64,000 nucleotides of DNA, taken from NCBI GenBank assembly GCA_030650025.1, contig JAUSEN010000029.1:287-64286 (forward strand), given 5' to 3'. The stretch is from Candidatus Magasanikiibacteriota bacterium (GTDB lineage Bacteria; Patescibacteriota; Patescibacteriia; Magasanikbacterales; GWA2-37-8). The notes below the pieces were generated by a model. The model saw only the letters and a program-made list of their open reading frames with translations. It was not told the origin of the DNA and searched no databases. Below are positions 36,719-52,156 of the stretch, in pieces (the first letter of the stretch is position 1; each line of letters opens with the position of its first letter). The position numbers and the translations under genes were made by a program.

Positions 36719-37366
36719 ATGCCCCTGCAATGGATTTTATTAGATATTGATAATTGCCTGTATAATGGGCTAAATCCAGACGGAAGTTTTACGGAATACA
36801 AACAAAGTATGCGCAACGCTGATGAGGCTTGGGCCGTGATATTAACGAAAGATTTGGCGGGATTGCGTAGTTACCGGCAAAAACGCGCCGAAGAAGTGGG
36901 TATGGATAAGTCACTTTTAGAATTTCTTTTTATCAAGACAGGGAAAGAGTATGGCATCGACCAATTGGCTACTCATCGCAATGGCCCGAACGGCTATAAA
37001 CCTGAGCAGTTCTTAAAGTCCGATCCTGAATTAGTCGCTTGTTTAGGCAATTTGCAAAACGCGGGTTATAAAATTGCGGCGCTCACCGACAATCCAGCCG
37101 GCAAAAGAGTGCTTACAGTGCTTGGACTTTTGCCCAAAATTATTAAAGAAGAGTTTGTCTTTGATAGCACCAGAATGGGCATGCTAAAAAATAAGGAATT
37201 TTATAAAAATGTTTTAGAAATATTGGCCGCTCAAGCTAATGAAGCAATTATGTTCGGCGATTCTCTTTCTTCTGACATTATTCCGGCCGAAGCCGTTGGC
37301 ATTAAGGGTCAATATGCCAAAAATCGTGATGAATTAATGCAACATTTGTGCGCCTTGCTGAAATAA
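36719..37366 (+). CDS. HAD-superfamily phosphatase (possible sugar-acid phosphate phosphatase)
   Basis: The N-terminal DxD motif is LLDIDNCLY and the C-terminal motif is MFGDSLSSD. The protein has a HAD fold. Confidence 0.55.
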   Translation: MPLQWILLDIDNCLYNGLNPDGSFTEYKQSMRNADEAWAVILTKDLAGLRSYRQKRAEEVGMDKSLLEFLFIKTGKEYGIDQLATHRNGPNGYKPEQFLKSDPELVACLGNLQNAGYKIAALTDNPAGKRVLTVLGLLPKIIKEEFVFDSTRMGMLKNKEFYKNVLEILAAQANEAIMFGDSLSSDIIPAEAVGIKGQYAKNRDELMQHLCALLK

Positions 37367-37367
37367 T

Positions 37368-38414
37368 ATGGCTATTAAAATCATCAAAAAAATTCCCAGC
37401 CAAGAGGAAATAGAACAAGCCGCCCCCCTTTCGGCTGTCGGTTACACGGCTATTTTAAAAGATCGTCAGGAAATTTGTGACATTTTATCCGGGAAGGACG
37501 ATCGCCTGCTGTTAATTATTGGACCTTGCTCGGCGTGGCCCTTTGACGCGGTGATTGAATACGCCACTCGTCTAATTTCTTTAAAAAAAGAATTGAATTT
37601 GGAAAAAGAATTTAAAGTTATCATGCGCGTTTATACCCAAAAGCCGCGCACCACTACTGGCTGGAACGGCCCCATTAATCAACCCGATCCGCTGGGCCAA
37701 CCCGATATTGCCGGTGGTATTAAATATACCAGAAAATTAATGGTCCAGCTTATAGAAATGGGTCTGCCCATCGCCAATGAAGCGGTTTTCACTCATGATA
37801 GCATGAAGTTTTTCCCGGATCTACTTTCTTGGATGGCGATTGGCGCGAGGAGCAGTGAAGATCAGGAACATCGCATATACGCTTCGGCGGTTGATTGCCC
37901 GGTCGGAATGAAAAATCCCACCAGTGGATCCATAAAAATCGGCGTTAATAGCATTATCGCGGCGCAAACATCTCAAGTCGCCGTATTTCACGGCCACCAA
38001 ATTGAAAGCAGCGGCAATAAATATGCCCACTTAGTTTTGCGCGGTGGAGAAAGTGGCCCCAATTACGCGACCAAGTTTGTGCTGGAAGCGGGGGACTTAA
38101 TGAAAAAAAATAATATTTTAAATCCGGCTATTATTATTGACGCTAGCCACGATAACTCCAAAGTTGATGGCAAAAAAAATCCTGAACAACAAATTAAGGT
38201 CGTTCAGGAATCAATCGCTGAACTTAAGTCAAACTTGGCTGTAAAAAATTTAGTGAAGGGGTTTATGATCGAAAGTTTTATAAAATCCGGGTCGCAAACA
38301 ATTGATCCGCGTTATCCAGAATCAATTGATCGGGGGGGGCTGTCGGTAACCGATCCCTGTATAAATTGGGAAACAACGGCGGAACTTTTATCGGCAATTT
38401 TTAAAAAAATTTAA
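37368..38414 (+). CDS. DAHP-synthase class I (AroG-type) homolog: 3-deoxy-ulosonate phosphate synthase
   Basis: LLLIIGPCSAWPFDAVIEYA...KVIMRVYTQKPRTTTGWNGPINQPDP closely follows the AroG IGPCS / RVYFEKPRTTVGWKG signature, at about 350 aa. Confidence 0.6.
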   Translation: MAIKIIKKIPSQEEIEQAAPLSAVGYTAILKDRQEICDILSGKDDRLLLIIGPCSAWPFDAVIEYATRLISLKKELNLEKEFKVIMRVYTQKPRTTTGWNGPINQPDPLGQPDIAGGIKYTRKLMVQLIEMGLPIANEAVFTHDSMKFFPDLLSWMAIGARSSEDQEHRIYASAVDCPVGMKNPTSGSIKIGVNSIIAAQTSQVAVFHGHQIESSGNKYAHLVLRGGESGPNYATKFVLEAGDLMKKNNILNPAIIIDASHDNSKVDGKKNPEQQIKVVQESIAELKSNLAVKNLVKGFMIESFIKSGSQTIDPRYPESIDRGGLSVTDPCINWETTAELLSAIFKKI

Positions 38415-38415
38415 T

Positions 38416-39201
38416 ATGTTAACAACCATTGCCATTATTCCCGCCCGTATGGCCTCAAGCCGGTTTCCCGGTAAACCGCTCAAACCAATAGTCGGTATGC
38501 CGATGGTTGGTCATGTTTATAAAAGAACTAAAATGAGCGGGGTAGACGCGGTGTATGTCGCTACTTATGACCAGGCCATTAAAGATTATGTGGAATCAAT
38601 AGGCGGGCAAGCCGTTCTTTTACAGGAAAAATTCGAACGGCCAACGGAATGTACCGCGGCGGCATTGCAAGAGATCGAGAGGGCCACCGGAGAAACGATT
38701 AAAAATATTTTGATGATTCAAGGAGATGAACCGGTAATTTTTCCGGAGACAGTAAATGATTTAGCCGCGGCTGTCAGCCAAAGAGCCAGCGGAGTAGTAA
38801 ATATCGTTAATAATATTCGCGATCGGCAAATTTTTTTAGATAAAAATATTGTTAAAGCCGTTCTTGATCAGCAGGGGAGGATTATCTGGTTTTTTCGTTT
38901 GCCCAGTCTTTTTTGGCAAGAACGTATTGACGAACTTACATCGGTAAAAATTCAGACCGGAATTATTGGTTTTAAGAGAGAGGCCTTGCTTTCTTACGCC
39001 ATGCTTAAATCCACAGATTTTGAAAAGGTCAACTCGGTGGATATGTTTCGCTTTGTGGAACACGGCATTCCCGTGTCAGCGTTGCTTTCTCCGCAGCGCC
39101 TTTATAGCGTTGATACACCCAAAGATCTAGAGTTGGTGAGCGAAATTATGAGTAATGATCCCTTGTTTCAAAAATACAATCAGCATGATAATCGAGGTTA
39201 G
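38416..39201 (+). CDS. KdsB/NeuA-family cytidylyltransferase (CMP-3-deoxy-ulosonate synthetase-like)
   Basis: AIIPARMASSRFPGKPLKPIVGMPMVGHVYKR matches the KdsB N-terminal motif IIPARxxSxRxPGKPL. Confidence 0.65.
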   Translation: MLTTIAIIPARMASSRFPGKPLKPIVGMPMVGHVYKRTKMSGVDAVYVATYDQAIKDYVESIGGQAVLLQEKFERPTECTAAALQEIERATGETIKNILMIQGDEPVIFPETVNDLAAAVSQRASGVVNIVNNIRDRQIFLDKNIVKAVLDQQGRIIWFFRLPSLFWQERIDELTSVKIQTGIIGFKREALLSYAMLKSTDFEKVNSVDMFRFVEHGIPVSALLSPQRLYSVDTPKDLELVSEIMSNDPLFQKYNQHDNRG

Positions 39202-40753
39202 CGTTATTGGCGAAGAGGTGCGTGTAATTGCGGGAAAAATGCAGAAGATTTTTTTTATTCGCGAAAATTTATCTTTGATGTTGGCAAAATTGAAAATGAT
39301 AAATGGTCTTAAATTTAAAAACGGCTCTCCCATCTACGATTCTAGAAAATATGGTTCGATTTCTCTTTGGAGTTTTTTTCAGGATTTTATTTTTTGGAAA
39401 CGATTGTATTTTTTTGTTAGGTTTTCCGAAGTAATTAAATTTATCACGGAGCAAAAATATACTCATATTTTAGTTAATAATCGAGAGTTGGCGGGCGTGC
39501 TACAAATGCTGCCCGGATTGAAGGTAAAATCAAAAAAGAATTTTTTAGCCTATCCCGCGCGATTGGTTTTAAAAGTATTTGGTTTTTTTATAAGTCATTT
39601 GGCAATTTTAATCCTATGGCTAAGAAAAACTCCCTACCTCGTTTATTCTCCGGATATTGCCGTTGGAAAATATGCTTGCGATTTTCGCTTAACCTCACTT
39701 TACGAATTTTTAATGTCGCGAAAAATTAAATTTCAAGAAATATTTCATACTAATATCGGGCTTAATTTTATCAGAAATTTTGTGCGGCGCTGGCGCGGCG
39801 TTTTATACTTGGAATCTTTAGTATTTTTTACCTCCAAAACAGATTTTAATCCTGCGGCGGTATCCTGGCCAAATTTGCCTGATTATGAAAGATTTTTTTT
39901 GGGTTTGGTTTTGAAAGAAGTGGATCGCATGTGTAATCACAGCGCTAAATTAATTAAAAAATTGATATTTATATTTAAGTACAGTAATGTAAAAAAATTG
40001 GCGGCTTTGGATGACATGAGGTACACCAACGAGCTCATTATTGCTTGCCGCGAAAATAGTATCGCCACTTTTGGTTTTCAGCATGGGCAATTTACGAAGT
40101 ATCATATCGGTTGGATGCATTATGATATGCCGCCAGAAAACAGCGTAACCTTTGACACCCTGTTTGTCTGGAATTCCTATTGGCAAAATATTCTTTGCCA
40201 GTATAGTCTTAAATATACCCTAGAGAACACAGCCATTTCGGGGGCACCTAAGAAATTTTTTGGCGAAGTAAAAAAGCGCGATAAACCAGCGTCACCAAAA
40301 AATCTGCTCATTTTATTTGAGTCATTTGTTTCTAAAAACGAAATTCAGCCTTATATCAATCGACTATTGGATTGTGGGTTTGTTTTATATTTAAGTTTGC
40401 GTCCCGACCTGCCTAAAAATGCGCAATTACAGCGTTATGGCTTAGTTGGTAATAATAGTGTGCAAGTGGTAAGTAAATTGGATGCTCAAATTATAAGCGA
40501 GCTTGATGCCGTTGTGGGTGTGCATAGTACGTTACTTAGTGAATTGATGTATTATGATTTGCCGGTTTTTCAAATTGAGTCCAGTTTTGATTTGGGGCAT
40601 CAATTAAGAGATAATTCGCTGTCAATTGCCTTGCCTAAAAATTTTACAACCGAATATATTAATTCGGCGATTGATTCATTCCAGTCAAAAAAGAACGTAG
40701 TTTGGCCATCGGCGCCGTCAATTAACGAAACATATCAAAAAATATTTAGTTAG
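39185..40753 (+). CDS. Hypothetical protein (about 520 aa). Possible glycosyl or ulosonic-acid transferase by context only.
   Basis: Large soluble ORF overlapping the end of the kdsB-like gene. I recognise no motif. The start is set at the ATG at 39185. Confidence 0.3.
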   Translation: MIIEVSVIGEEVRVIAGKMQKIFFIRENLSLMLAKLKMINGLKFKNGSPIYDSRKYGSISLWSFFQDFIFWKRLYFFVRFSEVIKFITEQKYTHILVNNRELAGVLQMLPGLKVKSKKNFLAYPARLVLKVFGFFISHLAILILWLRKTPYLVYSPDIAVGKYACDFRLTSLYEFLMSRKIKFQEIFHTNIGLNFIRNFVRRWRGVLYLESLVFFTSKTDFNPAAVSWPNLPDYERFFLGLVLKEVDRMCNHSAKLIKKLIFIFKYSNVKKLAALDDMRYTNELIIACRENSIATFGFQHGQFTKYHIGWMHYDMPPENSVTFDTLFVWNSYWQNILCQYSLKYTLENTAISGAPKKFFGEVKKRDKPASPKNLLILFESFVSKNEIQPYINRLLDCGFVLYLSLRPDLPKNAQLQRYGLVGNNSVQVVSKLDAQIISELDAVVGVHSTLLSELMYYDLPVFQIESSFDLGHQLRDNSLSIALPKNFTTEYINSAIDSFQSKKNVVWPSAPSINETYQKIFS

Positions 40754-40754
40754 T

Positions 40755-41480
40755 ATGTCTCTAATTAAGTTAGTAAAAAAAATTAGCGGTGATTTTAAAC
40801 AAATTTTTGGTTATCCAAAATGCGATTATGGGACAGATTATACTGTGGATTACCAAAAATATTGGTTACAGCGGCGCGGCCTTGGTCCCGTATCTTTAAG
40901 CCCATGGCAAACCCAGCGGGCCGCTTGGGCGTTAAGTTTATTCGAAACGGGATCATCCATTCTTGACGTTGGTTGGAAGGACGGTGACGTGGTGGGATTT
41001 TTATGTGAACAAGGGGGTTATAAACGTATTGACGCCAGTATTGATGAAAATGTTCTATTGCTCGCCAAAAGCCTTGGTATTAGTAACGTTGGTATCAATT
41101 TTTCTGACCTTGAAGCCATTGATAAGTTGGGAATGGCGGACTATATTTTGGGTTTTGATATCTTAGAGCATGTGGGCAATAGCGAGACTGTTCTTTTCCA
41201 CTTACTTAAGAAAGCTAACAAAGGCCTGTTGGTTTCGTTTCCCAACTCCGGTTATTTTGCGCATCGACTGCGCCTTCTGTTTGGCCGTTTTCCCTTGCAG
41301 TGGCGCACGCACCCTGGCGAGCACCTTCGTTTTTGGACAGTGCGCGATATGAGATTTTGGTTAAATTCTTTAGGTTTAAAAAAACAAGCGCGAATAATTT
41401 TATATGAAGGGATACCGATTTTAAACAAAGTTTTCCCTAAATTATTTGCTCAAGGAATCCTCATTTTTATCAAAAAGTAA
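40755..41480 (+). CDS. MetW-like SAM methyltransferase paralog with a degenerate SAM motif I
   Basis: FPNSGYFAHRLRLLFGRFPLQWRTHPGEHLRFWTVRDMRFW is shared with the downstream paralog, but motif I reads LDVGWKDGD instead of DIGCGDG. Confidence 0.5.
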   Translation: MSLIKLVKKISGDFKQIFGYPKCDYGTDYTVDYQKYWLQRRGLGPVSLSPWQTQRAAWALSLFETGSSILDVGWKDGDVVGFLCEQGGYKRIDASIDENVLLLAKSLGISNVGINFSDLEAIDKLGMADYILGFDILEHVGNSETVLFHLLKKANKGLLVSFPNSGYFAHRLRLLFGRFPLQWRTHPGEHLRFWTVRDMRFWLNSLGLKKQARIILYEGIPILNKVFPKLFAQGILIFIKK

Positions 41481-41487
41481 TTAGGGT

Positions 41488-42204
41488 ATGAAGCAGTTTT
41501 TGGTTAGATTAAAAAATGATGTCAGCCAGATTTTTGGCTACCCCATATGCGCGTATGGCCAGGATTTTTCGGTTGATTACCAAAAATATTGGGAGCGTCG
41601 CCGCGATAGTGGTACGGCCGTACTAACCGCGTGGCAGAAACAACGCGCGGCTGAGGCTCTTAAAATTATTACTCCCGGCGCCACGGTTATGGACATTGGC
41701 TGTGGCGATGGCGCCATTCTTGATTTCATGCGTTCAGCCTCCCGTATCAAAGGCATCGGTGTCGATATTGATTCATCAATTTTAGAGAGTGCCAAAAAGT
41801 TAGGTGTTCAAACAGTCTGCGCGGATATTAATGATCTTTCCGCTGTCGACGCGTTTCCCGCAGCTGATTATATAATAGCTTTTGAAGTTTTAGAGCATAT
41901 GCCCAGCCCAGAAAGATTTATCGCGCATATTCTCAAGAAGGCTACGCAGGGGCTCATTTTTTCCGTGCCAAACACCGGTTATTACGCGCATCGCTTGCGC
42001 CTGGCGTCTGGTCGTTTTCCTCTCCAATGGGTAGCGCATCCCGGCGAACATCTTCGTTTTTGGACCGTGCGCGATATGCGTTTTTGGGTCGCGTCGCTCG
42101 GTTTAAAAATAGAGAAATTAGTCTTGTATCAGGGTCTGCCTGTTCTCAATAAAATTTTTCCTAAATTATTTAGCCAAGGCATGATTGTTTTTATTAAAAA
42201 ATAA
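41488..42204 (+). CDS. MetW-like class I SAM-dependent methyltransferase
   Basis: Motif I MDIGCGDGAILDF, plus VPNTGYYAHRLRLASGRFPLQWVAHPGEHLRFWTVRDMRFW. Confidence 0.55.
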   Translation: MKQFLVRLKNDVSQIFGYPICAYGQDFSVDYQKYWERRRDSGTAVLTAWQKQRAAEALKIITPGATVMDIGCGDGAILDFMRSASRIKGIGVDIDSSILESAKKLGVQTVCADINDLSAVDAFPAADYIIAFEVLEHMPSPERFIAHILKKATQGLIFSVPNTGYYAHRLRLASGRFPLQWVAHPGEHLRFWTVRDMRFWVASLGLKIEKLVLYQGLPVLNKIFPKLFSQGMIVFIKK

Positions 42205-42208
42205 TTAT

Positions 42209-43675
42209 ATGAAATTATTTTTAATTAACTGGGGTCATCGTGAACCGCTTACCGCGGACATTGCTCATGATTTAGAAACACAAGGTCACCAAGTTTTGTA
42301 TTGGGTGCGTTCTAATAAGAATTTTAGAGTTGATGCTTCAAAATACCCCCATACCATTATTCAGGATTGGAACGATGCCATGGCGTGCCGGGCGCCCCAG
42401 GGGATAGACAAAGAAGCCTTTCCAGTACCCAGTAAAAATTTGCTAGCGCAATTCGCGGCCGAGGAACTTTTGGCTGTTTGCCTGCTCGACCGCGACTACC
42501 CGGAATATTCCGCTACTCAAAAGAGCGAAATTTATCATGATTATTTTCGTTTTTGGTATGGGCTAATTTTTCAAAAAAAGCCTGATGTCATTGTTTTCTC
42601 CGATACCCCGCATCGTGTGGTGGATTTCATGATTTATTCTGTTGCCAAAAAATTAGGTCTGCCGGTTATTTTATTTGGCGCTACAGTCATCGGCGACCGG
42701 AGTTATATCGCCTATGACTACGACCAAGGCTTTACCACGGGGTTTAAGCCCGGTCAAAACGCGCGCCTCGAGAATTTGAGTGTTGACATCGCGCTATATT
42801 ATAAAAATCAAACATCAGGCGCGGTTGATAACACTCCAATTTATATGAAACAGCAGGACGCGTACTTTTCTTGGGCGCGCAAATTAAAACGCAAGCTCAT
42901 GCACGCGCCTCGTCTTTTAGTCAAAATGGACCTCGTCGGACCCTTACAAAGAAATTTGCGTGACCTGGCGACGTATATTGGCTTCGGTGACGATATGATC
43001 AAAAAATATTGTCAACTGCAAAAGCCAGTAGATTACAATAGTAAATATGTCTACGTCCCTCTTCATTATCAACCCGAGCGCACGACTATGCCACAGGGTG
43101 GAGTATTTATGGACCAAATTTTAATGGTGCGTACCGTGGCCGCCGCCTTGCCGGCCGGGTGGAATATCTATGTAAAAGAGCACCGCTCCCAGTGGTATTT
43201 ATCTGGTCGCAGGCCATCTCAATTTCGGGCCTCGGATTATTACGAACGCTTGGCACAAATTCGGAATGTTACTCTTATTTCCGCTAATGAGAGTAGCTTT
43301 AAATTAATTAAAAGCGCCCAGGCAGTTGTAACTGTAACCGGCACCGCGGGTTGGGAATCAGTTCTGCGCAATGTACCGTCGTTAATTTTTGGCGCGCCCT
43401 GGTATCAGGGTTGCCCGGGCACGTTCCGTGTTTCTAGCGTCGAAGACTGTCATCAATTTTTTGCCGATTTGCAATCGGGTTATAAAATTTCTCAACAAGA
43501 AATAATCGATTTTCTTTACTTTATTGATTGCCACACATTTCATGGTTATTTGCAGACATATCAGCATAGTCAAACAAAGTTGACGGAAATAGAAAATAGA
43601 AATAATATCTTGACAATTTTACTGAATGAAATTGAAAAATTATCGCCCCGAAAAGCTTCCGACTGGTTATTTTGA
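42209..43675 (+). CDS. Hypothetical protein (about 490 aa). Possible capsule-type glycosyltransferase by context.
   Basis: Large soluble ORF between the methyltransferase pair and pseB. The start is set at the ATG at 42209. Confidence 0.3.
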   Translation: MKLFLINWGHREPLTADIAHDLETQGHQVLYWVRSNKNFRVDASKYPHTIIQDWNDAMACRAPQGIDKEAFPVPSKNLLAQFAAEELLAVCLLDRDYPEYSATQKSEIYHDYFRFWYGLIFQKKPDVIVFSDTPHRVVDFMIYSVAKKLGLPVILFGATVIGDRSYIAYDYDQGFTTGFKPGQNARLENLSVDIALYYKNQTSGAVDNTPIYMKQQDAYFSWARKLKRKLMHAPRLLVKMDLVGPLQRNLRDLATYIGFGDDMIKKYCQLQKPVDYNSKYVYVPLHYQPERTTMPQGGVFMDQILMVRTVAAALPAGWNIYVKEHRSQWYLSGRRPSQFRASDYYERLAQIRNVTLISANESSFKLIKSAQAVVTVTGTAGWESVLRNVPSLIFGAPWYQGCPGTFRVSSVEDCHQFFADLQSGYKISQQEIIDFLYFIDCHTFHGYLQTYQHSQTKLTEIENRNNILTILLNEIEKLSPRKASDWLF

Positions 43676-43751: not shown

Positions 43752-44738
43752 ATGATTTTGGAATTTTTAAAAGGAAAGTCAGTTTTAGTTACCGGTGGCA
43801 CTGGCTCTTTCGGCCAAAAATTCATTAAAACTTTGCTTGCCAATAGCGCGGCGCGGCGTATTATTATTTTTAGCCGCGACGAATTTAAGCAGTCGGTTAT
43901 GGCCAGTGAGTTATCCGACCCGGAGCGTCGTTTACGATTTTTTTTAGGCGATGTGCGCGACCTTGATCGCCTACAGATGGCTTTCCACGGAGTTGATTAT
44001 GTTATACACGCGGCCGCGCTTAAGCAGGTCCCCCTGCTCGAATACAACCCATTTGAAGCTATCAAAACTAACATTATTGGCACTCAAAATGTTATTACCG
44101 CCGCTATTAACCAGGGAGTCGCTCGGGTGGTGCTTGTTTCAACCGATAAGGCGGCCAACCCGGCGAATCTATATGGCGCCACCAAGCTGTGCGCCGAGCG
44201 TTTGATGATTAGTGGCAATGCTTATGGTGCTCGCCAGACAATTTTCGGAGTCGTGCGATATGGCAATGTCGTTGGGAGCCGCGGGAGCCTAGTTCAGCTT
44301 GTTGAGGATCAACGCAAAACTGGCACGGTCATGCTGACTCATGAAGACATGACCCGATTTTGGATTACGCTTGATCAGGGCGTTAATTTGGTGCTCTTGG
44401 CGCTAGAAAAAATGCATGGCGGCGAAATTTTTATTCCGAAAGTGCCGAGCATGCGCGTCAAGGAATTTTTACAGACTTTTGCTCCAGACGCTAAAATTAA
44501 AATTATGGGTATTCGTCCCGGAGAAAAACTGCATGAAATTTTGGTTACTCCCGAGGAAGCGCGCCATGCCAAAGATTTTGATACTCATTATATTATTTTG
44601 CCGGAACATGCTAATTGGCCGCACCGTGATAAATACGATAAATTAGGCAAAGTCTTGCCCCACGATTTTTATTTTAGCAGTCAAAATAATACCGATTGGC
44701 TTACCGCGGAATCGCTTAAAAAATTATTGGGAATTTAG
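43752..44738 (+). CDS. pseB: UDP-N-acetylglucosamine 4,6-dehydratase (inverting), PseB/FlaA1-like
   Basis: KSVLVTGGTGSFGQKFIKTLL...RIIIFSRDEFKQ...GDVRD...STDKAANPANLYGATKLCAE matches the PseB/CapD short form. Confidence 0.8.
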   Translation: MILEFLKGKSVLVTGGTGSFGQKFIKTLLANSAARRIIIFSRDEFKQSVMASELSDPERRLRFFLGDVRDLDRLQMAFHGVDYVIHAAALKQVPLLEYNPFEAIKTNIIGTQNVITAAINQGVARVVLVSTDKAANPANLYGATKLCAERLMISGNAYGARQTIFGVVRYGNVVGSRGSLVQLVEDQRKTGTVMLTHEDMTRFWITLDQGVNLVLLALEKMHGGEIFIPKVPSMRVKEFLQTFAPDAKIKIMGIRPGEKLHEILVTPEEARHAKDFDTHYIILPEHANWPHRDKYDKLGKVLPHDFYFSSQNNTDWLTAESLKKLLGI

Positions 44739-44741
44739 GCT

Positions 44742-45893
44742 ATGATTATCCCATACGGTAGACAATCCATTGGGGCCGATGATATTGCCGCTGTGGAGGC
44801 GGTGCTCCGATCGGATCGGCTGACCCAAGGGCCCAAGGTGGAAGAGTTCGAGCAGGCGCTTGCCGAGTACTGCGGCGCTCGGTTTGCCGTCGTTACCAGT
44901 AGTGGCACTAGCGCGCTCCATACCGCGTATGCCGCTGTCGGGCTTAGCGCCGGAGATGAAATTATTTCTTCGCCTATTACTTTTCCGGCTACTACTAATG
45001 CCGCGCTTTGGCAGGGCGCTAAGCCAGTATTTGTGGATGTAGAATCAAAAACCGGGAATATCAATGTTGACTTAATTAAAGCCAGCATTACTTCCAAAAC
45101 CAAGGCCATTGTGCCGGTTGATTATACTGGTCGGCCGGTTAATTTGGCTGCCATTAAAAAATTGGCACAGCAGCATAATTTGGTGGTTATTGAAGATGCT
45201 TGCCAGGCGCTCGGCGCAACGTATCACGGCAAAAAAATCGGTTCTATTAGTGATTTAACCGTGTTTAGTTTTCATCCTGTCAAGAGTATTACCACGGGCG
45301 AGGGTGGAGCCGTGCTGACTGACAATGAAAATTGGTACAAAAAAATGAAGATGTTTGTTACCCACGGCGTAACAAAAGCACCGGATAATCTTACGATTTC
45401 TTCCCCCGGTGCTTGGTATTTTGAAATGCAATTATTGGGTAATAATTATCGTTTAACCGACCTACAAGCCGCGCTCGGCATCAGCCAATTAAAAAAGCTT
45501 GATCAGTTTGTGGCTCGCCGTCGTGAATTAGTTACGCGGTATAGCGCCGCCTTAGCAGATCAGGCCGCTATTGTCACTCCGCCGGCTGATTCTACTTCAG
45601 AAGAATCAGCGTGGCACTTGTATGTTATTCAGTTGCAAGGAAAATTATCAGGCCAGCGCGCGGAGATGTTCAAAAAACTGCAAGAGTCTGGGGTTGGAGT
45701 TCAAGTTCATCATATGCTTTCGTATTATCATCCATATTATCAGAAACTTGGGTATTTGCGTGGTGCCTGCCCACGGGCAGAGGCCTGGTACGAATCAATT
45801 ATTTCTTTGCCGCTATATCCTGATTTAACACTGGCGGATCAAGATTATGTCATAAAAACCGTTAAAGATTTCGCAGAAAGCTTGCAAAAATAA
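44742..45893 (+). CDS. pseC: UDP-4-amino-4,6-dideoxy-N-acetyl-beta-L-altrosamine transaminase (PseC-like, DegT family)
   Basis: MIIPYGRQSIGADDIAAVEAVLRSDRLTQGPKVEEFE..., FSFHPVKSITTGEGGAV, and the position directly after pseB. Confidence 0.75.
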   Translation: MIIPYGRQSIGADDIAAVEAVLRSDRLTQGPKVEEFEQALAEYCGARFAVVTSSGTSALHTAYAAVGLSAGDEIISSPITFPATTNAALWQGAKPVFVDVESKTGNINVDLIKASITSKTKAIVPVDYTGRPVNLAAIKKLAQQHNLVVIEDACQALGATYHGKKIGSISDLTVFSFHPVKSITTGEGGAVLTDNENWYKKMKMFVTHGVTKAPDNLTISSPGAWYFEMQLLGNNYRLTDLQAALGISQLKKLDQFVARRRELVTRYSAALADQAAIVTPPADSTSEESAWHLYVIQLQGKLSGQRAEMFKKLQESGVGVQVHHMLSYYHPYYQKLGYLRGACPRAEAWYESIISLPLYPDLTLADQDYVIKTVKDFAESLQK

Positions 45894-45902
45894 AGCTTTT
45901 GT

Positions 45903-46601
45903 ATGGAGAAAAATATTTTGGCAATCATTACCGCTCGGGGCGGCAGCAAGAGAATCCCGCGCAAAAATATTAAATTATTTTTAGGCCAGCCAATTATTAA
46001 ATATTCTATCGGGGCCTCGCTACAAGCTGGTATTTTTGCGGAAGTAATGGTATCTACGGACGATCGCGCCATCGCTGACGTGGCAGAAAGTTCCGGCGCC
46101 ACCGTGCCCTTTTTCCGTTCCGAAAAAAATTCCGGAGACCAGGCCACTACCGCTGATGTCATGCTAGAGGTGCTAGCTGAATATCAAAAACAAGGTAAAA
46201 ATTTTGATTATGTTTGTTGTTTATATCCGACCGCTCCCTTCGTAACCTCGGCCCGGTTGGTTGAAGCAGTAAAGTTATTAGACCAAACTGGTTCGGACGC
46301 CGTGTTGCCAGTAACCCGTTTTAGTTTTCCCATTCAACGAGCGTTAAAAATTGAGAGCAATCTTGTCAAGATGATCTGGCCAGAAAATTTAAATATCCGC
46401 TCGCAAGACTTAATGCCCGCGTATCATGACTGTGGACAATTTTATGCTTTAAATATTAAAAGTTTTTTGGAGCAAAAAAAATTATATATGGATAAAACCG
46501 CGCCGCTTATCATACCTGAGTCCGAAGTGCAAGATATCGACACCGAAGAAGACTGGAAGATTGCGGAAATGAAATATAAAATTTTACAAGCCGGCAAGTA
46601 A
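45903..46601 (+). CDS. pseF: CMP-nonulosonic acid synthetase (PseF/NeuA-family cytidylyltransferase)
   Basis: AIITARGGSKRIPRKNIK matches the acylneuraminate cytidylyltransferase N-terminal motif. Confidence 0.7.
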   Translation: MEKNILAIITARGGSKRIPRKNIKLFLGQPIIKYSIGASLQAGIFAEVMVSTDDRAIADVAESSGATVPFFRSEKNSGDQATTADVMLEVLAEYQKQGKNFDYVCCLYPTAPFVTSARLVEAVKLLDQTGSDAVLPVTRFSFPIQRALKIESNLVKMIWPENLNIRSQDLMPAYHDCGQFYALNIKSFLEQKKLYMDKTAPLIIPESEVQDIDTEEDWKIAEMKYKILQAGK

Positions 46602-46622
46602 ATATTTAATTAAACTAACAGC

Positions 46623-47705
46623 ATGGAGCCAATCGTTATCCAAACTCCAAAAGGAAAAAAGAAAATTGGGCCGGGAGAACCGTGTTTTATTATTGCTGAA
46701 ATGTCTGTGAATCATCAGCAGAATTATGAACAGGCGGCGGAAATTGTGCGCGCGGCGGCGCGCTCTGGTGCTGATGCCATTAAAGTGCAGACGTTTACGC
46801 CGGAGAGCCTCACGATTGATTCTGATAAACGCTGGTTTACACAGCGTAGCCAAGATAACCCGGCCGAGTGGGGCGGGCAGACTCTCTACCAACTATACCA
46901 AAAAGCCACCATGCCCTGGGAGTGGCAGCCCAAGTTACAAAAAATTGCCCACGAAGAGGGTATAGTATTTTTTTCTACGCCCCAAGACCAAGCCTCGGTT
47001 GATTTTTTGGAAACGTTACAGGTGCCGTGCTATAAAGTTGCGTCGTACGAAGCAGTGGATATTTCTTTGTTGCATATGGTGGCAAGAACCAAAAAGCCGG
47101 TTATTTTATCGGTGGGTTTTGCGACGCAGGACGAAATTAAAGAGGCGGTCCAGGCTTTGCGTTCAGGCGGCGGGGGCGATATCGCGCTCCTCCATTGCCT
47201 TACCTCATACGCAGACAACTCTGACTATGTTACCGCTAATTTGCGCACCATGCAGGATTTGCAAAAGCAGTACGGTGTGGTAGTCGGGTTTTCCGATAAC
47301 AATGGCGGCATAGAAATTCCCGTAATGGCGGTGACTGCCGGCGCCGCGATTGTTGAGAAGCACTTGGTGCTCGAACACGGCACCGGCGCGCTTGATGATA
47401 GGTTTTCTCTGTCAGTTGATGAGTTTGGCGAAATGGTAAAACGCATTCGTCGTGCTGAAGCAATTTTAGGCGCAGTGCATTATGGGCCGCAGAATGATTT
47501 TGAAAAACAGAATCTTTATTTTCGGCGGTCTTTATTCGTGGTCGAAGCCATTAAAAAAGGAGAGGTGTTTACTTTAAAAAATGTTCGTTCGATACGCCCC
47601 TCGCACGGCCTGCCGCCCAGCGAACTCGATAAAATTATTGGCAAAACCGCGGCCTGCGATATCGAGCGCGGCACGCCGCTAAACTGGGAAATAGTGTCTA
47701 GGTAA
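46623..47705 (+). CDS. pseI: Nonulosonic acid synthase (PseI/NeuB family) with a C-terminal SAF domain
   Basis: CFIIAEMSVNHQQNYEQAAEIVRAAARSGADAIKVQTF matches the NeuB N-terminal motif. The C-terminal about 60 aa (FTLKNVRSIRPSHGL) is SAF-like. Confidence 0.75.
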   Translation: MEPIVIQTPKGKKKIGPGEPCFIIAEMSVNHQQNYEQAAEIVRAAARSGADAIKVQTFTPESLTIDSDKRWFTQRSQDNPAEWGGQTLYQLYQKATMPWEWQPKLQKIAHEEGIVFFSTPQDQASVDFLETLQVPCYKVASYEAVDISLLHMVARTKKPVILSVGFATQDEIKEAVQALRSGGGGDIALLHCLTSYADNSDYVTANLRTMQDLQKQYGVVVGFSDNNGGIEIPVMAVTAGAAIVEKHLVLEHGTGALDDRFSLSVDEFGEMVKRIRRAEAILGAVHYGPQNDFEKQNLYFRRSLFVVEAIKKGEVFTLKNVRSIRPSHGLPPSELDKIIGKTAACDIERGTPLNWEIVSR

Positions 47706-47709
47706 TTGT

Positions 47710-48678
47710 ATGAGCCACCCCGCTATTAAAAATATTCTTATCACCTGCGCCGGCGGCAGTGGGCCGTTGTATTTGGCTAAACAACTTAAGAAAAAAGGGT
47801 ACCACGTGTACCTCTCTGACGGCAGCAACGAGTCGATAGCTCGGTTTTTGGGTTTTCCGTTTGCTCTCATGCCGTTTGGCAATAGCCAGCAATACCTGCC
47901 GGCTGTAAAAGACCTGATTCGTCGCTGGAATATACAATGTATTGTGCCGGGCGCGGATGAAGAATTGTTAGCAGTTGCAAAATTGTGTGAAGAGATTCCT
48001 CATTTACAAGCAGTACTTCCACGCAAAGATTTTATTGCGGCCTGCCTTAATAAAAAAGAGTTAATGAAACGTTTAGCGAAGCTGTCAATTTCTTCTTTAC
48101 TGTCTTTTGCCACGCGGCGCTCGGTTGCGTACCCGGCCGCTGTTAAGCCTATGTACGGCCGCGGATCCCGTGGGTTCCACATTGTTCATAATAGCCGGCA
48201 GTTAGCCGGTTATCTGGCGTTATACAATAAAAAATTCAGCGAGCTGGTAGTGCAGCCGTATATTGCCGGTGACGAATACACGGTTTCGGTAATTGTAAAT
48301 AATAAGAATCAATTGTTAGCAATAGTCTGCAAGAAAATCTTGCTCAAGCGCGGCATAACCAAGGCGGCGGTGGTGGTTAAAAATAATGTCATCGATCGCG
48401 TATGCCGAATGATTGTTAAAAAAATGTCGCCTGGCGGTCCCTTTAACGTGCAGTTAAAGCTGTATAAAGGCAAGGTTTATATTTTTGAGATTAATCCTCG
48501 GTTGTCAACAACCTCGGTGTTAACCGACCAAGCTTGTGGCAATGAGGTTGAGCTGTATATCCATAGTTTTAATCGCGCGGTTATTAAAAAGCAACTCCCG
48601 GTACAGAGTGGCATTTTTTTGTATCGATACGAAGAAAATTTTTTTAAGTTTTCACGAACCAAGCTAAAACGCGTATGA
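47710..48678 (+). CDS. ATP-grasp domain protein (carboxylate-amine ligase-like)
   Basis: AVKPMYGRGSRGFHIV...ELVVQPYIAGDEYTVSVI...YIFEINPRLSTT follows the ATP-grasp pattern. Confidence 0.55.
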   Translation: MSHPAIKNILITCAGGSGPLYLAKQLKKKGYHVYLSDGSNESIARFLGFPFALMPFGNSQQYLPAVKDLIRRWNIQCIVPGADEELLAVAKLCEEIPHLQAVLPRKDFIAACLNKKELMKRLAKLSISSLLSFATRRSVAYPAAVKPMYGRGSRGFHIVHNSRQLAGYLALYNKKFSELVVQPYIAGDEYTVSVIVNNKNQLLAIVCKKILLKRGITKAAVVVKNNVIDRVCRMIVKKMSPGGPFNVQLKLYKGKVYIFEINPRLSTTSVLTDQACGNEVELYIHSFNRAVIKKQLPVQSGIFLYRYEENFFKFSRTKLKRV

Positions 48679-49532
48679 AGGTACTCTTGATCGGCGGTTC
48701 GCGCTTTACCGGCCCGGCCATTGTCGCCGAATTGCTTAAAAAAAATTACGAGGTGACGGTTTTTAATCGCGGTAATATTACCGAAAGGCACGACCCCAAG
48801 GTTCGCTTTATTAAAGGGGATCGCAACAGCGGGTTTAACCTCCGTGATCATTTTGATGCGGTAATCGACACTTGCGCGTACACCAAAGAGCAGATCAAGC
48901 GGTCACTCGGCGAATTACAGTTCGATTATTATCTATTCGTAAGTACGGCAGCAGTGTATCGCAAAACGCACGTTTTTCCTTTAACCGAAGTCAATTCGCC
49001 GCGCGGGCCCTGGCCTGTGTGGGGGGAATATAGTGCGAGAAAAATTGAGTGTGAAGAAGCGCTCGAGCACAGCGGCGCGGCGCATGCGATTGTTCGCCCG
49101 GTATATATTTTAGGCCCGCACAATCCGGTTGATCGCGAAAATTTTATTTATTCTCGGTTAAGAAACAACACCCCACTCACACTGCCGGGTAATGGATCAG
49201 CCATCATTCAGTTTATTTTTGTGCAGGATATCGCTCGGATCTACGCAAGGTTAGTTGAACAAAAAATTACCGGCATTTTTAATTGCGCTGGCTCCGAAGG
49301 TATTACCTTAATTGGCTTAGTTGAGGAAATGGCGCGTATCGTGGGGGTACCACCCCAGATTGAATTTAACCCGGCCGCTGATGGTGACAAATTTGACGAG
49401 CGTCAATTCCCTTTTGCGAATGAAAATTTTTTTTGTGATAACATCAAACTCAAGCAACTTGGTTTTACCCCCAGCTCGCTCATAACAGGATTGCGTCAAG
49501 ATTACGTTGGCTACTATCGAGATTTTCGTTAA
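48675..49532 (+). CDS. NAD(P)-dependent oxidoreductase (atypical SDR/NmrA-like)
   Basis: MKVLLIGGSRFTGPAIVAELLKKNYEVTVFNRG is a Rossmann N-terminus. Confidence 0.5.
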   Translation: MKVLLIGGSRFTGPAIVAELLKKNYEVTVFNRGNITERHDPKVRFIKGDRNSGFNLRDHFDAVIDTCAYTKEQIKRSLGELQFDYYLFVSTAAVYRKTHVFPLTEVNSPRGPWPVWGEYSARKIECEEALEHSGAAHAIVRPVYILGPHNPVDRENFIYSRLRNNTPLTLPGNGSAIIQFIFVQDIARIYARLVEQKITGIFNCAGSEGITLIGLVEEMARIVGVPPQIEFNPAADGDKFDERQFPFANENFFCDNIKLKQLGFTPSSLITGLRQDYVGYYRDFR

Positions 49533-49542
49533 AGATTAGCGC

Positions 49543-50241
49543 GTGAGTATGTATTTTATTGGCGACGTTCACAACAATATTCAAGAACTTAAGAAACTAC
49601 TGGCAACCCTCAATTTATCAGGCGGAGCCGAGCTCGTTTTTTTAGGTGACTACATTGACAAAAATACTTCAACCCAGGAAACCGTAGAGTTTCTCCTTTC
49701 GCTTTGCCAAGAGTATCACTGTGTCTTTCTCAAAGGGAATCACGATTTTGTATGGGACAGGTACCTTAACCATCAGGAGTACGCGCGGCAGGAGTTTCTC
49801 CTCAAGTACGGTTCAGCAGAATCTTTGCGGCAGTACAGTGGTTCCCCCGAGGTTTTAATTAAAAATAATGATGTCGCCGCGATCAAAGTTTTTTTCCGAG
49901 ACTACTTGAAACTTCTAGCGCTCACGCAGGATTATTTTCTAGCCGATTCATATCTGGCGGTTCACGCCGGGCTGTCGCCGGACCAGCTTAATCAGCAGCC
50001 GCTCGTTTGGAGCGAACTTAACTATTTTTTACGACCCAAGCGCATGGTGCTGGATAAAAAATATCTCGGTACCCATGCCGTAGTGGCCGGTCACACTTTT
50101 TTGTCAGACACCCCGACTATTTATCCCGGGTATATCAACGTCGATTTAGGGGCTGGATATGGCCAGTACCTGGGCGCTTTGAGCACGGAAGACAACGCCG
50201 TTATAAGATCAGATGGAAAAATATTTACTCTTAATATTTAA
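49543..50241 (+). CDS. Calcineurin-like metallophosphoesterase
   Basis: GDVHNN, LVFLGDYIDKN and FLKGNHDF correspond to the GDxHG / GDxxDRG / GNH(D/E) metal-binding motifs. Confidence 0.65.
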   Translation: MSMYFIGDVHNNIQELKKLLATLNLSGGAELVFLGDYIDKNTSTQETVEFLLSLCQEYHCVFLKGNHDFVWDRYLNHQEYARQEFLLKYGSAESLRQYSGSPEVLIKNNDVAAIKVFFRDYLKLLALTQDYFLADSYLAVHAGLSPDQLNQQPLVWSELNYFLRPKRMVLDKKYLGTHAVVAGHTFLSDTPTIYPGYINVDLGAGYGQYLGALSTEDNAVIRSDGKIFTLNI

Positions 50242-50244
50242 AAT

Positions 50245-50916
50245 ATGAAGTCAAAAATTTTGGTTGTTGCCGCTCATCCGGATGATGAGCTCCTTGGAGT
50301 TGGGGGAACAGTGGCGTATCACAGCGGAAAAGGGGATAGCGTGTATGCTCTTATTTTAGGGCAAGGAGCATTATCGCGAAGCGGAGCCAAACCAGCCGCA
50401 GTTACTAAATTGCACGAACAGGCCAAACAGGCCAGCAAGATAATTGGATTTAGAGAAGTTTTTTTTGCAGATTTTCCTGACAATGCCTTTGATTCCGTAA
50501 GTTTACTTACGATTACTCAGGAGGTCGAAAAGTATCTTACCAAGATTGCGCCAGACCGAGTGTATACTCATCATGAATATGATCTCAATATTGATCACCG
50601 ACTAACTTTCCAGGCTGTCCTTACTGCCTGCCGGCCTTGCAATCAGTATTGCCCGCGCGAACTGTACACGTTCGAGACACTTTCTTCCACAGAATGGCAG
50701 AGTAAAGATCATAAACAGTTTCAACCAACAGTGTATCAAGATATTACCGCTACTATTGGTACAAAGTTAAAAGCCTTAGCCTGCTATGCCGGTGAAATGC
50801 GCTCATATCCGCACCCACGTTCGTTAGAAGGAGCGAAAATTTTGGCTCAATGTCGAGGATTAGAAGTACAGCTTAAATACGCTGAAGCTTTTCATTTAAT
50901 AAGGAAGATTCAATAA
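50245..50916 (+). CDS. PIG-L/LmbE-family N-deacetylase
   Basis: ILVVAAHPDDELLGVGGTVA is the signature HPDDE zinc-binding N-terminus. Confidence 0.7.
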   Translation: MKSKILVVAAHPDDELLGVGGTVAYHSGKGDSVYALILGQGALSRSGAKPAAVTKLHEQAKQASKIIGFREVFFADFPDNAFDSVSLLTITQEVEKYLTKIAPDRVYTHHEYDLNIDHRLTFQAVLTACRPCNQYCPRELYTFETLSSTEWQSKDHKQFQPTVYQDITATIGTKLKALACYAGEMRSYPHPRSLEGAKILAQCRGLEVQLKYAEAFHLIRKIQ

Positions 50917-50924
50917 AGTAAAGT

Positions 50925-51521
50925 ATGGAAGCTGCTGATCAATTGCAAGAAATGTTGGAAAACGAGGCGCCTAGTCGGAGCGATGCTATTGTTTGGTTAC
51001 AAGGCGATCAATATGATCGAGGCAAAAAAGTGTTCGAGTTATACCAAGAAAAATTTGCGCCGCGGATTATTATAACTGGAAATGATGAATTGATTGGCCA
51101 AGGGAAGCGTTTTGAAGAGAGTAATATTTCACTTAATGCCATGCGTAGTTGGTTGCTAGCCCGGGGGGTAGCGCCGCCAGATATTACCGTTGATGCTGAT
51201 CCGCTCAATACGCGCGAACAAGCCGAGCACGTTATCCAACTTGCCAAAAAAAATGATTGGCGCCAGCTAATATTAGTTGGCTCTATATATTATCAAATGC
51301 GTGCTTTCCTAACTTTTTTAAAGTACGCTAAAGAAAGTGACTGGACGGGACGCATTTTGAATCAGATGGCAAAAATTAAGTGGGACGATGTACCAAGCGG
51401 ACGTCAACAAACCGCTCGGACGTATTTTTTGGTTGACAAGAAAAAAATTGAGCAGTATCGAGCGCACGTCGCGCCCGTCGCCGAGGGGATTGCTTATTTA
51501 AAATCACGCCGAAGCATATGA
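50925..51521 (+). CDS. DUF218/YdcF-like domain protein
   Basis: IVWLQGDQYDRG...RIIITGN...GVAPPDITVDADPLNTREQAEH follows the YdcF/ElyC pattern. Confidence 0.45.
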   Translation: MEAADQLQEMLENEAPSRSDAIVWLQGDQYDRGKKVFELYQEKFAPRIIITGNDELIGQGKRFEESNISLNAMRSWLLARGVAPPDITVDADPLNTREQAEHVIQLAKKNDWRQLILVGSIYYQMRAFLTFLKYAKESDWTGRILNQMAKIKWDDVPSGRQQTARTYFLVDKKKIEQYRAHVAPVAEGIAYLKSRRSI

Positions 51522-52156
51522 TAATTAATCTACTCACTGATAATCCACAAAGTTGGATTATCCCATACGTTAAGCAGGCAGCAGAAGAATTGCGTTCTCT
51601 TGGCCACACGGTATATTTTGTCCACAATCAAAAAGATATTGTGGCGGGAGACTGCGCCTTTTTTTTGGGGTGTGAAAAACTAGTAAAATCCGAGACGCTC
51701 AAAAAAAATAAACACAATCTTGTAATTCATGAAAGCGCTCTGCCCGCGGGCAAGGGTTGGTCGCCGCTCACCTGGCAAATTTTAGATGGAAAAAATGACA
51801 TACCCGTGTCGCTGTTTGAAGCGGAAGCGGCAGTTGATAACGGCCCGATTTATTTTCAGGACACGCTTCATTTTGCGGGGTATGAATTAAATAAAGAATT
51901 GAAAGAGGCCCAGGGGCGACTATCAATAGAGTTAGTTAAGCGTTTTGTTCTCGCCTACCCGGCGATTACTGGGCAGAGGCAGGCTGGCGCCGCGACTTTT
52001 TATTCGCGGCGCACTCCTAAAGACAGCGAATTAGACGTAAACAAAACAATCGCCGAGCAATTTAATTTGTTCCGAGTTGTTGATAATGAAAACTACCCCG
52101 CTTTTTTCAATCACCTCGGCCATAAATATATAATAAAAATATACAAATTCGAATAA
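51518..52156 (+). CDS. Formyltransferase (sugar N-formyltransferase-like, Fmt/PurN fold)
   Basis: NLVIHESALPAGKGWSPLTWQILDG matches the formyltransferase catalytic motif (HxSLLPxxxG). Confidence 0.6.
   Translation: MIINLLTDNPQSWIIPYVKQAAEELRSLGHTVYFVHNQKDIVAGDCAFFLGCEKLVKSETLKKNKHNLVIHESALPAGKGWSPLTWQILDGKNDIPVSLFEAEAAVDNGPIYFQDTLHFAGYELNKELKEAQGRLSIELVKRFVLAYPAITGQRQAGAATFYSRRTPKDSELDVNKTIAEQFNLFRVVDNENYPAFFNHLGHKYIIKIYKFE

Follow-up and report, generated by a model that had tools for sequence, protein, structure and literature searches.

A putative surface-glycan operon in a Candidatus Magasanikiibacteriota bacterium, with two candidate sugar-acid transferases and an intact and a degenerate MetW-like methyltransferase

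In the KdsD-KdsA-KdsC-KdsB pathway to 3-deoxy-manno-octulosonic acid (Kdo), an enzyme condensing phosphoenolpyruvate with an aldose phosphate, a HAD phosphatase and the cytidylyltransferase KdsB lead to a transferase. Methyltransferases of the kind treated here compare with MetW (TIGR02081), the methyltransferase-fold partner of the homoserine O-acyltransferase MetX, and with pairs of active and inactive methyltransferase paralogs, of which METTL3-METTL14, Trm61-Trm6 and DNMT3A-DNMT3L are known. The transferases compare with the Kdo transferase WaaA/KdtA (GT30), a membrane-associated GT-B enzyme whose donor is Kdo activated with cytidine monophosphate (CMP), and with a superfamily comprising the retaining beta-Kdo transferases KpsC/KpsS (PF05159, GT107), WbbB (GT99), KpsS1 (GT118) and KrkA (GT140). 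Retaining Kdo transferases carry an invariant QXXXD motif with a nucleophilic Asp and an HP motif that binds CMP (PMC10148158, PMC12887879), and KpsS1 of A. baumannii, cited in PMC12887879 as a pseudaminyltransferase, is a superfamily member able to transfer pseudaminic acid (Pse). Here we compare these systems with a locus in a 64,000-nucleotide stretch of contig JAUSEN010000029.1 from a Candidatus Magasanikiibacteriota bacterium (the window; coordinates are positions within it), in which two large open reading frames (ORFs), ORF-A and ORF-B, bracket two MetW-like genes, MT1 and MT2. Proteins identical to those of the window are recorded from a metagenome-assembled genome (MAG) labelled Candidatus Magasanikbacteria, and their relatives come almost entirely from MAGs of Patescibacteria, uncultured organisms with tiny genomes whose surface chemistry is almost unknown.

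We found seven densely spaced genes at 36719-43675, all on the + strand and part of a longer co-directional + strand run, with junctions ranging from a 17-nt overlap to a 7-nt gap, and we therefore treat them as one operon. We favour, with moderate confidence, the explanation that two modules, each pairing a glycosyltransferase with a methyltransferase, were joined here in a single Wzx/Wzy-type surface-glycan operon, and that MT1 is non-catalytic. The features discussed below are as follows.

36719-37366, + strand: HAD-family phosphatase, first gene of the ulosonate cassette (Pfam Hydrolase/HAD_2)
37368-38414, + strand: type I-alpha DAHP-synthase-like enzyme (NCBIfam NF009395, TIGR00034 aroFGH)
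38416-39201, + strand: KdsB-like CMP-ulosonate cytidylyltransferase (Pfam CTP_transf_3)
39185-40753, + strand: ORF-A, 522 amino acids (aa), GT-B-fold model, undescribed family, putative CMP-ulosonate glycosyltransferase
39563-39625, + strand: hydrophobic helix of ORF-A, probable membrane anchor (aa 137-157 in 532-aa numbering; helix 132-157 in the model)
40079-40087, + strand: Q-H-G motif of ORF-A (of QHGQFTKY), candidate active-site loop
40400-40408, + strand: R-P-D motif of ORF-A (K-x-R-P-D), after the second strand of the C-terminal domain
40755-41480, + strand: MT1, 241 aa, MetW-like class I methyltransferase fold with eroded S-adenosylmethionine (SAM) residues
40965-40988, + strand: degenerate motif I of MT1, D71-V-G-W-K-D-G-D78
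41488-42204, + strand: MT2, 238 aa, MetW-like class I SAM-dependent methyltransferase with intact motifs
41692-41712, + strand: canonical motif I of MT2, D69-I-G-C-G-D-G75 (G-x-G-x-G)
42209-43675, + strand: ORF-B, 488 aa, PF05159 Capsule_synth, GT-B-like transferase
43070-43078, + strand: Q288-P-E290 motif of ORF-B (in PLHYQPE), apparently where KpsC-type enzymes have QXXXD
43175-43186, + strand: K-E-H-R of ORF-B (family YVKEHP), a candidate HP-type CMP-binding motif with Pro replaced by Arg
43752-47705, + strand: PseB, PseC, PseF and a NeuB-family synthase (NCBIfam equivalogs and a NeuB family match)

A preliminary description of this DNA had given the four ORFs, the paralogy of MT1 and MT2, their contrasting motif I (DVGWKDGD against DIGCGDG) and the flanking ulosonate and Pse genes as we find them. 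The longest frame of ORF-A begins at 39155; we favour the start at 39185, which gives 522 aa, because it agrees with public annotation P0001 and with the strands at the N-terminus of the predicted structure. ORF-B is identical to public annotation P0016.

In the explanation we favour, module A (the HAD phosphatase, the DAHP synthase, the KdsB-like enzyme, ORF-A and MT1) would make a CMP-activated 3-deoxy-2-ulosonic acid by analogy with KdsA, KdsC and KdsB, and ORF-A, anchored in the membrane, would add this sugar acid to the glycan as it grows. Module B, consisting of MT2, ORF-B and the Pse genes, would make CMP-Pse, and the sugar acid that ORF-B transfers from its CMP-activated donor would most probably be pseudaminic acid. 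Such transferases have MetW-like methyltransferases as standard neighbours, which are likely to methylate either the sugar acid being transferred or the acceptor; MT2 would supply the catalysis, methylating one of the two sugar-acid residues or the acceptor, while MT1 most likely performs no methyl transfer and survives as a substrate-binding or scaffolding partner. We tentatively suggest that MT1 is a SAM-blind partner of ORF-A, and we prefer this to a role as SAM-blind partner of MT2, which we think unlikely.

A Kdo-like cassette and two candidate transferases

The DAHP-synthase-like enzyme passed the cut-offs of NF009395 (344.9 bits, cut-off 343) and TIGR00034 aroFGH (287 bits, cut-off 173), and it retains GPCS, KPRT, IGARSSEDQ and DASHDNS, which we take to be the active-site motifs of E. 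coli AroG. The KdsB-like protein scored 119 bits against CTP_transf_3, and its top NCBIfam models were all 3-deoxy-manno-octulosonate cytidylyltransferases, with scores below their cut-offs. The cassette of HAD phosphatase, DAHP synthase and KdsB-like enzyme is also present in comparison loci L002, L003, L006 and L010, the HAD gene holding the same position in L002, L003 and L006 at 54-62% identity. Since the aroFGH cut-offs are passed and KPRT is kept, the expected product is a 7-carbon acid rather than Kdo, and by analogy the module A sugar acid is probably a 7-carbon 3-deoxy-heptulosonate. The cassette has the look of a Kdo-type pathway recast for a 7-carbon sugar acid: it shares the logic of condensing enzyme, HAD phosphatase, KdsB-like cytidylyltransferase and then transferase, and it differs in that the condensing enzyme is a type I-alpha DAHP synthase with KPRT. 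To our knowledge, the organisms that carry it generally lack aromatic amino acid synthesis. Patescibacteria may have made a DAHP synthase the first step of a Kdo-like 7-carbon sugar pathway; in the literature we found nothing on Patescibacteria nonulosonic acids, no sugar pathway combining a DAHP synthase with a cytidylyltransferase and no CMP-heptulosonate pathway.

The preliminary description had called both large ORFs unannotatable. This held for ORF-A, which matched no Pfam or NCBIfam family at E≤0.01 and no PDB entry by sequence or profile, and ten members of its family likewise matched no Pfam model within the ORF-A domain. A word-indexed search found 15 relatives and an exhaustive profile search 1,195 cluster representatives, 383 of them below 1e-30; the family is mostly from Patescibacteria, and most members are about 490 aa long and lack roughly the first 65 residues. 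Structure prediction, one of the checks that the preliminary description had put forward, gave GT-B-like models for both large ORFs. The AlphaFold2 model of ORF-A (predicted local distance difference test, pLDDT, 86.4; predicted template modelling score, pTM, 0.84) has an N-terminal beta-rich three-stranded domain of about 120 aa, a hydrophobic helix and two Rossmann-like domains of alternating strand-helix elements (aa 161-340 and 383-493). Foldseek returned 241 PDB matches at E≤1e-3, and the 50 listed were all GT-B-fold proteins of generic type (OleD, MurG, WaaA, BshA, NeuC; E 1e-9 to 1e-7, TM-score 0.35-0.57, identity 10-13%), so that ORF-A is predicted to be a GT-B-fold protein. The hydrophobic helix reached a Kyte-Doolittle 19-mer mean of 2.21, and the same position scored 1.6-2.7 in 13 of 14 homologs.

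Across 156 representatives of the ORF-A family (522-aa numbering), near-invariant polar residues include D157, D166, R168, R202, R204, D276 and R279, together with Q299-H300-G301, E379, R406-P-D408, G445 and S448-T449 (GxxST). The QHG motif is conserved in 97-99% of these representatives and invariant in alignment A1, and its adjoining loop is the sole internal low-confidence stretch of the model. In the RPD motif, Arg is conserved in 99% and Asp in 91%; it may stand at the place of the HP motif (KVHPD/KEHP) of KpsC-type enzymes. Remote homology between ORF-A and ORF-B was considered and rejected, hhalign of A1 against ORF-B and against its family (A4) giving a probability of 0.1-0.2%, and the parallels between E379/RPD and QPE/KEHP therefore stay an unproven impression.

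Gene context points to the donor. In L001-L004, L006, L007, L010, L013 and L027 the ORF-A family gene is directly preceded by a KdsB-type gene, a KdsD homolog (KpsF/KdsD isomerase) adjoins the ORF-A relative in L005, a KdsC-like phosphatase occurs in L007, and P0387 (700 aa) is a natural fusion of an ORF-A domain with a C-terminal KdsB part that passes the TIGR00466 cut-off. This linkage, including the fusion, is the pattern expected of a transferase consuming a CMP-activated Kdo-like sugar acid, and from this context ORF-A is most likely a CMP-ulosonate glycosyltransferase, an assignment we regard as putative. In about 26 of 38 independent loci, an immediate neighbour of the ORF-A family gene encodes a MetW-like methyltransferase. 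In sequence and profile comparisons ORF-A matched none of the families that transfer CMP-activated sugar acids (GT30 WaaA, GT52/GT80 sialyltransferases, GT107/GT99). Like WaaA, ORF-A is predicted to combine a GT-B fold with a hydrophobic element for membrane association, it directly follows a KdsB-type gene, and WaaA structure 2xci is among its Foldseek matches (E 6e-8). However, ORF-A matched no WaaA Pfam domain, its identity (10-11%) and TM-score (0.36-0.49) to WaaA equal those to unrelated GT-B enzymes, and it has the additional N-terminal domain of about 120 aa; it also has no significant similarity to the KpsC/KpsS superfamily. ORF-A is thus a new family within a known fold.

Two further observations concern the ORF-A family. 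P0309 (885 aa) joins an ORF-A family domain to an N-terminal GT4 domain. Relatives also occur on contigs labelled Archaeoglobus sp., Bdellovibrionota and 'uncultured Gammaproteobacteria' (L014 = MTMJ01000044.1; L010, L013 and others), which probably reflect errors of binning or labelling, or possibly horizontal transfer.

ORF-B, by contrast with the preliminary description, could be annotated: it matched PF05159 Capsule_synth at 31.9 bits (cut-off 20) over aa 314-409. A profile of 34 family members matched the E. coli KpsC structures 8fuw, 8fux and 6mgc (E 1.2e-8 to 1.5e-8) and 6mgb (1.2e-5), and only weakly WbbB 5fa0 (E 0.26). Its model (pLDDT 92.1, pTM 0.90) has a GT-B-like two-domain form, and Foldseek returned GT-B proteins with KpsC 6mgd and 8fux among the top matches (E 4.5e-8 to 7.4e-8); the KpsC chains had the highest identity among these matches (17-18%), with low global TM-scores of 0.28-0.46. 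ORF-B has more than 471 homologs, mainly from Patescibacteria, and a majority of the 120 listed carry a precomputed PF05159 match.

In the 34 ORF-B family sequences Q288 and E290 are invariant (consensus PL[HNSG][YF]QPE) and a Q-x3-D motif is not present. Manual comparison suggests that QPE may be positionally equivalent to QXXXD; HMMER alignment of ORF-B with a KpsC fragment rebuilt from the paper and from search output covered the C-terminal 71 residues only and left the QXXXD region unaligned. The YVKEHP motif, whose His is invariant and whose Pro is kept in most members, appears by manual alignment to be the counterpart of KpsC KVHPD, and this position reads H-R in the window protein and H-R or H-I in its two nearest relatives, P0017 and P0018. 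ORF-B therefore resembles the KpsC/KpsS superfamily in its PF05159 score, its KpsC profile matches, its GT-B-like form, an invariant His in a YVKEHP-type motif that may correspond to KVHPD and a place beside genes for CMP-activated sugar acids, whereas its family differs by PL[HN][YF]QPE and by an inserted helical segment of about 80 residues, the window protein by H-R, and the match covers about 96 residues. We conclude that ORF-B is a new member of a known superfamily, a divergent relative of KpsC/KpsS rather than an established member of GT107. What the preliminary description expected of the two large ORFs, a role as transferases of activated sugar acids, accordingly gains support, ORF-B as a PF05159/KpsC relative and ORF-A as a predicted GT-B protein linked to KdsB and once fused to it.

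Downstream of ORF-B, PseB, PseC and PseF are NCBIfam equivalogs above cut-off (439, 484 and 293 bits), and Pse genes also directly follow the ORF-B relatives in L003, L004, L008, L009, L018 and L056. ORF-B is probably a CMP-pseudaminic acid transferase. Invariable linkage of the ORF-B family to nonulosonate genes was rejected by sampling distant members (L054, L055), whose contexts differ; we therefore restrict the Pse assignment to the clade of the window rather than extend it to the entire family. The ABC exporter, which is not in the window, is a more constant neighbour of the ORF-B family than nonulosonate genes are.

Three observations concern the neighbours of ORF-B relatives. A fused ABC exporter (ABC_membrane + ABC_tran) stands immediately upstream of ORF-B relatives in many genomes (L002 8380-10101; L003 12353-14146; L004 3066-4850; L006 12359-14149; L055 5205-7004; L056 5199-6986) and is absent from the window; the window and its closest relatives, L007 and L008, have a Wzx-type flippase in its place. 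In L002 (11566-16063), L006 (15656-20148) and L055 (8445-12174) the ORF-B relative is followed by a GFO_IDH_MocA oxidoreductase, a DegT aminotransferase, an acetyltransferase and a protein of about 320 aa, without Pse genes. A cytidylyltransferase precedes the oxidoreductase, aminotransferase and acetyltransferase set in L002 and L006, and this set would be a different CMP-sugar pathway.

SAM motifs of MT1 and MT2

MT1 and MT2 share 53% identity over 233 aa (E 2e-99) and the C-terminal block GRFPLQW..HPGEHLRFWTVRDMRFW. The preliminary description had singled out this block; it is present in both proteins, and being invariant across the entire MetW-like subfamily it is not special to the pair. 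Recent gene conversion between MT1 and MT2 in the block was considered and rejected (nucleotide identity 76%, third positions identical at 17 of 29 conserved codons).

Class I methyltransferases contact SAM canonically through the glycines of motif I, an acidic residue that ends strand beta2 and the Asp of motif III. At these positions MT2 reads DIGCGDG, GVDID and ADIND, and MT1 reads DVGWKDGD (central Gly to Lys), DASID (Asp to Ser) and INFSD (Asp to Asn). The destroyed SAM motif reported earlier for MT1 thus extends to three contact positions, and the same losses recur in two orthologs at 61% identity. MT2 passes the cut-offs of six methyltransferase Pfam families and has 3cc8 and the Hen1 methyltransferase domain as its closest solved relatives, whereas MT1 passes PF07021 alone (32.1 bits, cut-off 21) and no general methyltransferase Pfam model. 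Both proteins resemble MetW in the PF07021 match and in a MetW-type C-terminal block (PN-GY--R--L--GR-P...W..P..H...T), but at 45.3 bits for MT1 and 79.3 bits for MT2 they fall far under the equivalog cut-off of 189.5, and their context is one of glycan genes with no metX nearby.

Among the best 120 homologs, at least 113 have G-x-G-x-G, and GW[KR]DGD occurs only in P0136 (window), P0137 (L002) and P0138 (L006). All three have Asn in motif III and, in place of the acidic beta2 residue, Ser or Asn, and they form one clade, apart from MT2, in a neighbour-joining tree. Identity of MT1 to the L002 and L006 orthologs is 61%, compared to 60-62% for the HAD phosphatase, 59-60% for the KdsB-like enzyme, 38% for ORF-A and 32-34% for ORF-B, and between L002 and L006 the MT1-type gene shows the highest identity of the cassette (79.6%). 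Because two orthologs share the same losses and conservation equals that of neighbouring enzymes, we take MT1 to be maintained by selection rather than decaying; from its motifs it is probably a maintained SAM-blind protein. MT1 is a degenerate but conserved paralog within a known enzyme class, and nothing in the locus is categorically new. As in pairs of the METTL3-METTL14 type, one paralog (MT2) has an intact SAM site and the other is degenerate yet conserved across species; in contrast to those pairs, MT1 is genetically linked to a putative glycosyltransferase rather than to its intact paralog. Without canonical cofactor contacts, MT1 would exemplify a bacterial pseudoenzyme and, if it acts as a non-catalytic subunit of ORF-A or MT2, no such pseudoenzyme would have been described before from the assembly of bacterial glycans.

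Comparative loci and competing explanations

The MT1-type gene of L002 and L006 lies between the KdsB-like gene and ORF-A, and the intact MetW-like paralog of these loci is 4-5 kb upstream, beside a B12-radical-SAM gene, and belongs to a different clade. MT2-type genes adjoin ORF-B in L007, L008 and L032, the nearest relatives of MT2 being immediately upstream of the ORF-B relatives in L007 and L008. Most relatives have the order ORF-A, methyltransferase, ABC exporter, ORF-B, and the tandem of MT1 and MT2 was found in the window only. With the exporter missing in the window, the ORF-A-linked and ORF-B-linked methyltransferase copies became adjacent, and the tandem looks less like a dedicated pair than like the seam between two modules.

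In every one of the five loci that carry the DAHP-synthase cassette, the methyltransferase copy beside ORF-A deviates from the canonical SAM motifs, and the locus has a further MetW-like paralog that is intact. The copies of the window, L002 and L006 deviate strongly and those of L003 (beta2 Asp to Ser) and L010 (third Gly to Ser) at a single position, whereas loci without the cassette have a single MetW-like copy with an essentially intact glycine-rich motif. The simplest reading of these motifs is that the copy linked to ORF-A would have lost catalysis, but kept another role, after a second paralog had become available. As a separate observation, an intact MetW-like methyltransferase and a B12-binding radical-SAM enzyme lie just upstream of the DAHP-synthase cassette in L002 (990-3153), L003 (5260-7429) and L006 (4997-7125); no radical-SAM gene turned up among the window ORFs scanned.

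We therefore weigh the joined-module explanation as follows. If its outline is correct, the locus suggests that Patescibacteria invest in acidic, methylated surface glycans through a large family (about 1,200 representatives) that no database describes; in the literature we found nothing on the ORF-A family, this ORF-B or MT1. A fuller version, which we put forward as possible only, is that the ORF-A family is a new family, widespread in Patescibacteria, of glycosyltransferases for Kdo-like acids, that the donor in this lineage is a CMP-activated and hitherto unreported 7-carbon 3-deoxy-heptulosonate made by way of a DAHP synthase recruited from aromatic amino acid synthesis, and that MT1 is a conserved, non-catalytic pseudo-methyltransferase subunit of ORF-A or MT2. 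Should this be borne out, ORF-A would found a CAZy family of its own and CMP-heptulosonate would join the known nucleotide sugars; otherwise the region remains usefully annotated, with ORF-B as a KpsC/KpsS-type enzyme and the methyltransferases as ordinary tailoring enzymes.

Several points count against this explanation. Neither sequence nor profile comparison gave ORF-A significant similarity to a characterised transferase, and the structural matches of its model are generic GT-B proteins that include UDP-N-acetylglucosamine (UDP-GlcNAc) 2-epimerases, with TM-scores of 0.35-0.57. The Pfam match of ORF-B is limited to 96 C-terminal residues, its family has QPE for QXXXD and the window protein H-R for H-P, and distant ORF-B relatives stand without nonulosonate neighbours in L054 (a CDP-glycerol-type context) and L055 (oxidoreductase, aminotransferase and acetyltransferase). 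The predicted loss of SAM binding in MT1 comes from sequence alone, the MT1 clade has three members only, and the mild erosion in L003 and L010 may be compatible with retained activity. Further MT1-type genes were not found in metagenome contigs: a degenerate DNA pattern for L-D-[IV]-G-W-[KR]-D-G-D-V gave five contig matches, none of which codes for a relative, and we attribute them to chance.

The preliminary description had proposed that MT1 and MT2 act together, and one alternative is accordingly an obligate dead/active heterodimer, like METTL3-METTL14 or Trm61-Trm6, in which the dimer is the functional methyltransferase. The two genes are in tandem, 7 nt apart, MT1 has preserved the complete fold and the C-terminal block that is invariant in the family despite its lost SAM contacts, and each of the five loci with an eroded copy has an intact MetW-like paralog in the same cluster. 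Comparative data nevertheless lend the heterodimer no support and make it unlikely in our view: the tandem is confined to the window, the MT1-type gene of L002 and L006 sits beside ORF-A at a distance of 4-5 kb from an intact copy of another clade, and MT2 orthologs accompany ORF-B without any MT1-type gene.

We consider it equally improbable that MT1 is an active methyltransferase that binds SAM or another cofactor non-canonically and differs from MT2 in position or substrate. Its 61-80% identity to orthologs would fit such activity, as would the retention of the first and third motif I glycines, of motif IV (DYILGF[DE]I[LI]EH) and of the family-invariant residues of the C-terminal half, and the replacements match closely in all three clade members, as in a re-tuned site and not in random decay. 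However, three independent SAM contacts were replaced together (Gly to Lys/Arg, beta2 acidic to Ser/Asn, motif III Asp to Asn), and MT1 scores too low for every one of the general methyltransferase Pfam models whose cut-offs MT2 passes. An extended side chain in place of the central motif I Gly is expected to clash with bound SAM, which also counts against an active MT1.

For ORF-A, the alternative is a different GT-B enzyme, either a nucleotide-sugar 2-epimerase or hydrolase or a TagF-like polyol-phosphate transferase, and we judge this to have a small chance of being right. NeuC and UDP-GlcNAc 2-epimerases score in Foldseek close to true glycosyltransferases, and homology of ORF-A to any CMP-sugar transferase was not detectable; against this stand the persistent KdsB, KdsC, KdsD and DAHP-synthase neighbours and the one KdsB fusion, the lack of CDP-alcohol genes nearby, and the many conserved Arg residues and hydrophobic anchor, which suit an anionic donor and a membrane-bound acceptor.

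That MT1 is a redundant, functionless duplicate in decay is very improbable: it adjoins an intact paralog and has the longest branch of its clade in the neighbour-joining tree, but its frame is full-length and intact, two further genomes share its degenerate motifs, its orthologs are conserved at the level of the HAD and KdsB-like enzymes and above that of ORF-A and ORF-B, and its 53% identity to MT2, separate clade and lack of any sign of gene conversion show that it is not a recent MT2 copy.

The wider glycan cluster

Beyond the operon, the window encodes GT4 transferases, aminotransferases, a GDP-mannose dehydratase, a Wzy_C/TPR protein and, at 52181-53443 on the minus strand, a Wzx-type flippase; on the strength of the GT4, Wzy_C/TPR and Wzx-type genes we read the cluster as a Wzx/Wzy-type surface-glycan cluster. 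Tailoring genes lie downstream of the PseB, PseC, PseF and NeuB-family set: at 47710-52156, after this Pse core, are genes for an ATP-grasp ligase and for epimerase-like, metallophosphoesterase, PIG-L deacetylase, DUF218 and formyltransferase-like proteins, which together suggest an unusually decorated pseudaminic acid.

Immediately upstream of the glycan cluster, at 18536-22264, a 1,242-aa ORF without a Pfam match occupies the most G+C-rich stretch of the window (0.50-0.53), and its product might be a surface protein that is a target for glycosylation. It is followed at 22419-24443 by the gene for the Wzy_C/TPR protein, 674 aa long with a Wzy_C (O-antigen ligase-like) domain and C-terminal TPR repeats, and a comparable Wzy_C/TPR gene is found near the ORF-B relative in L054 (14145 onward).

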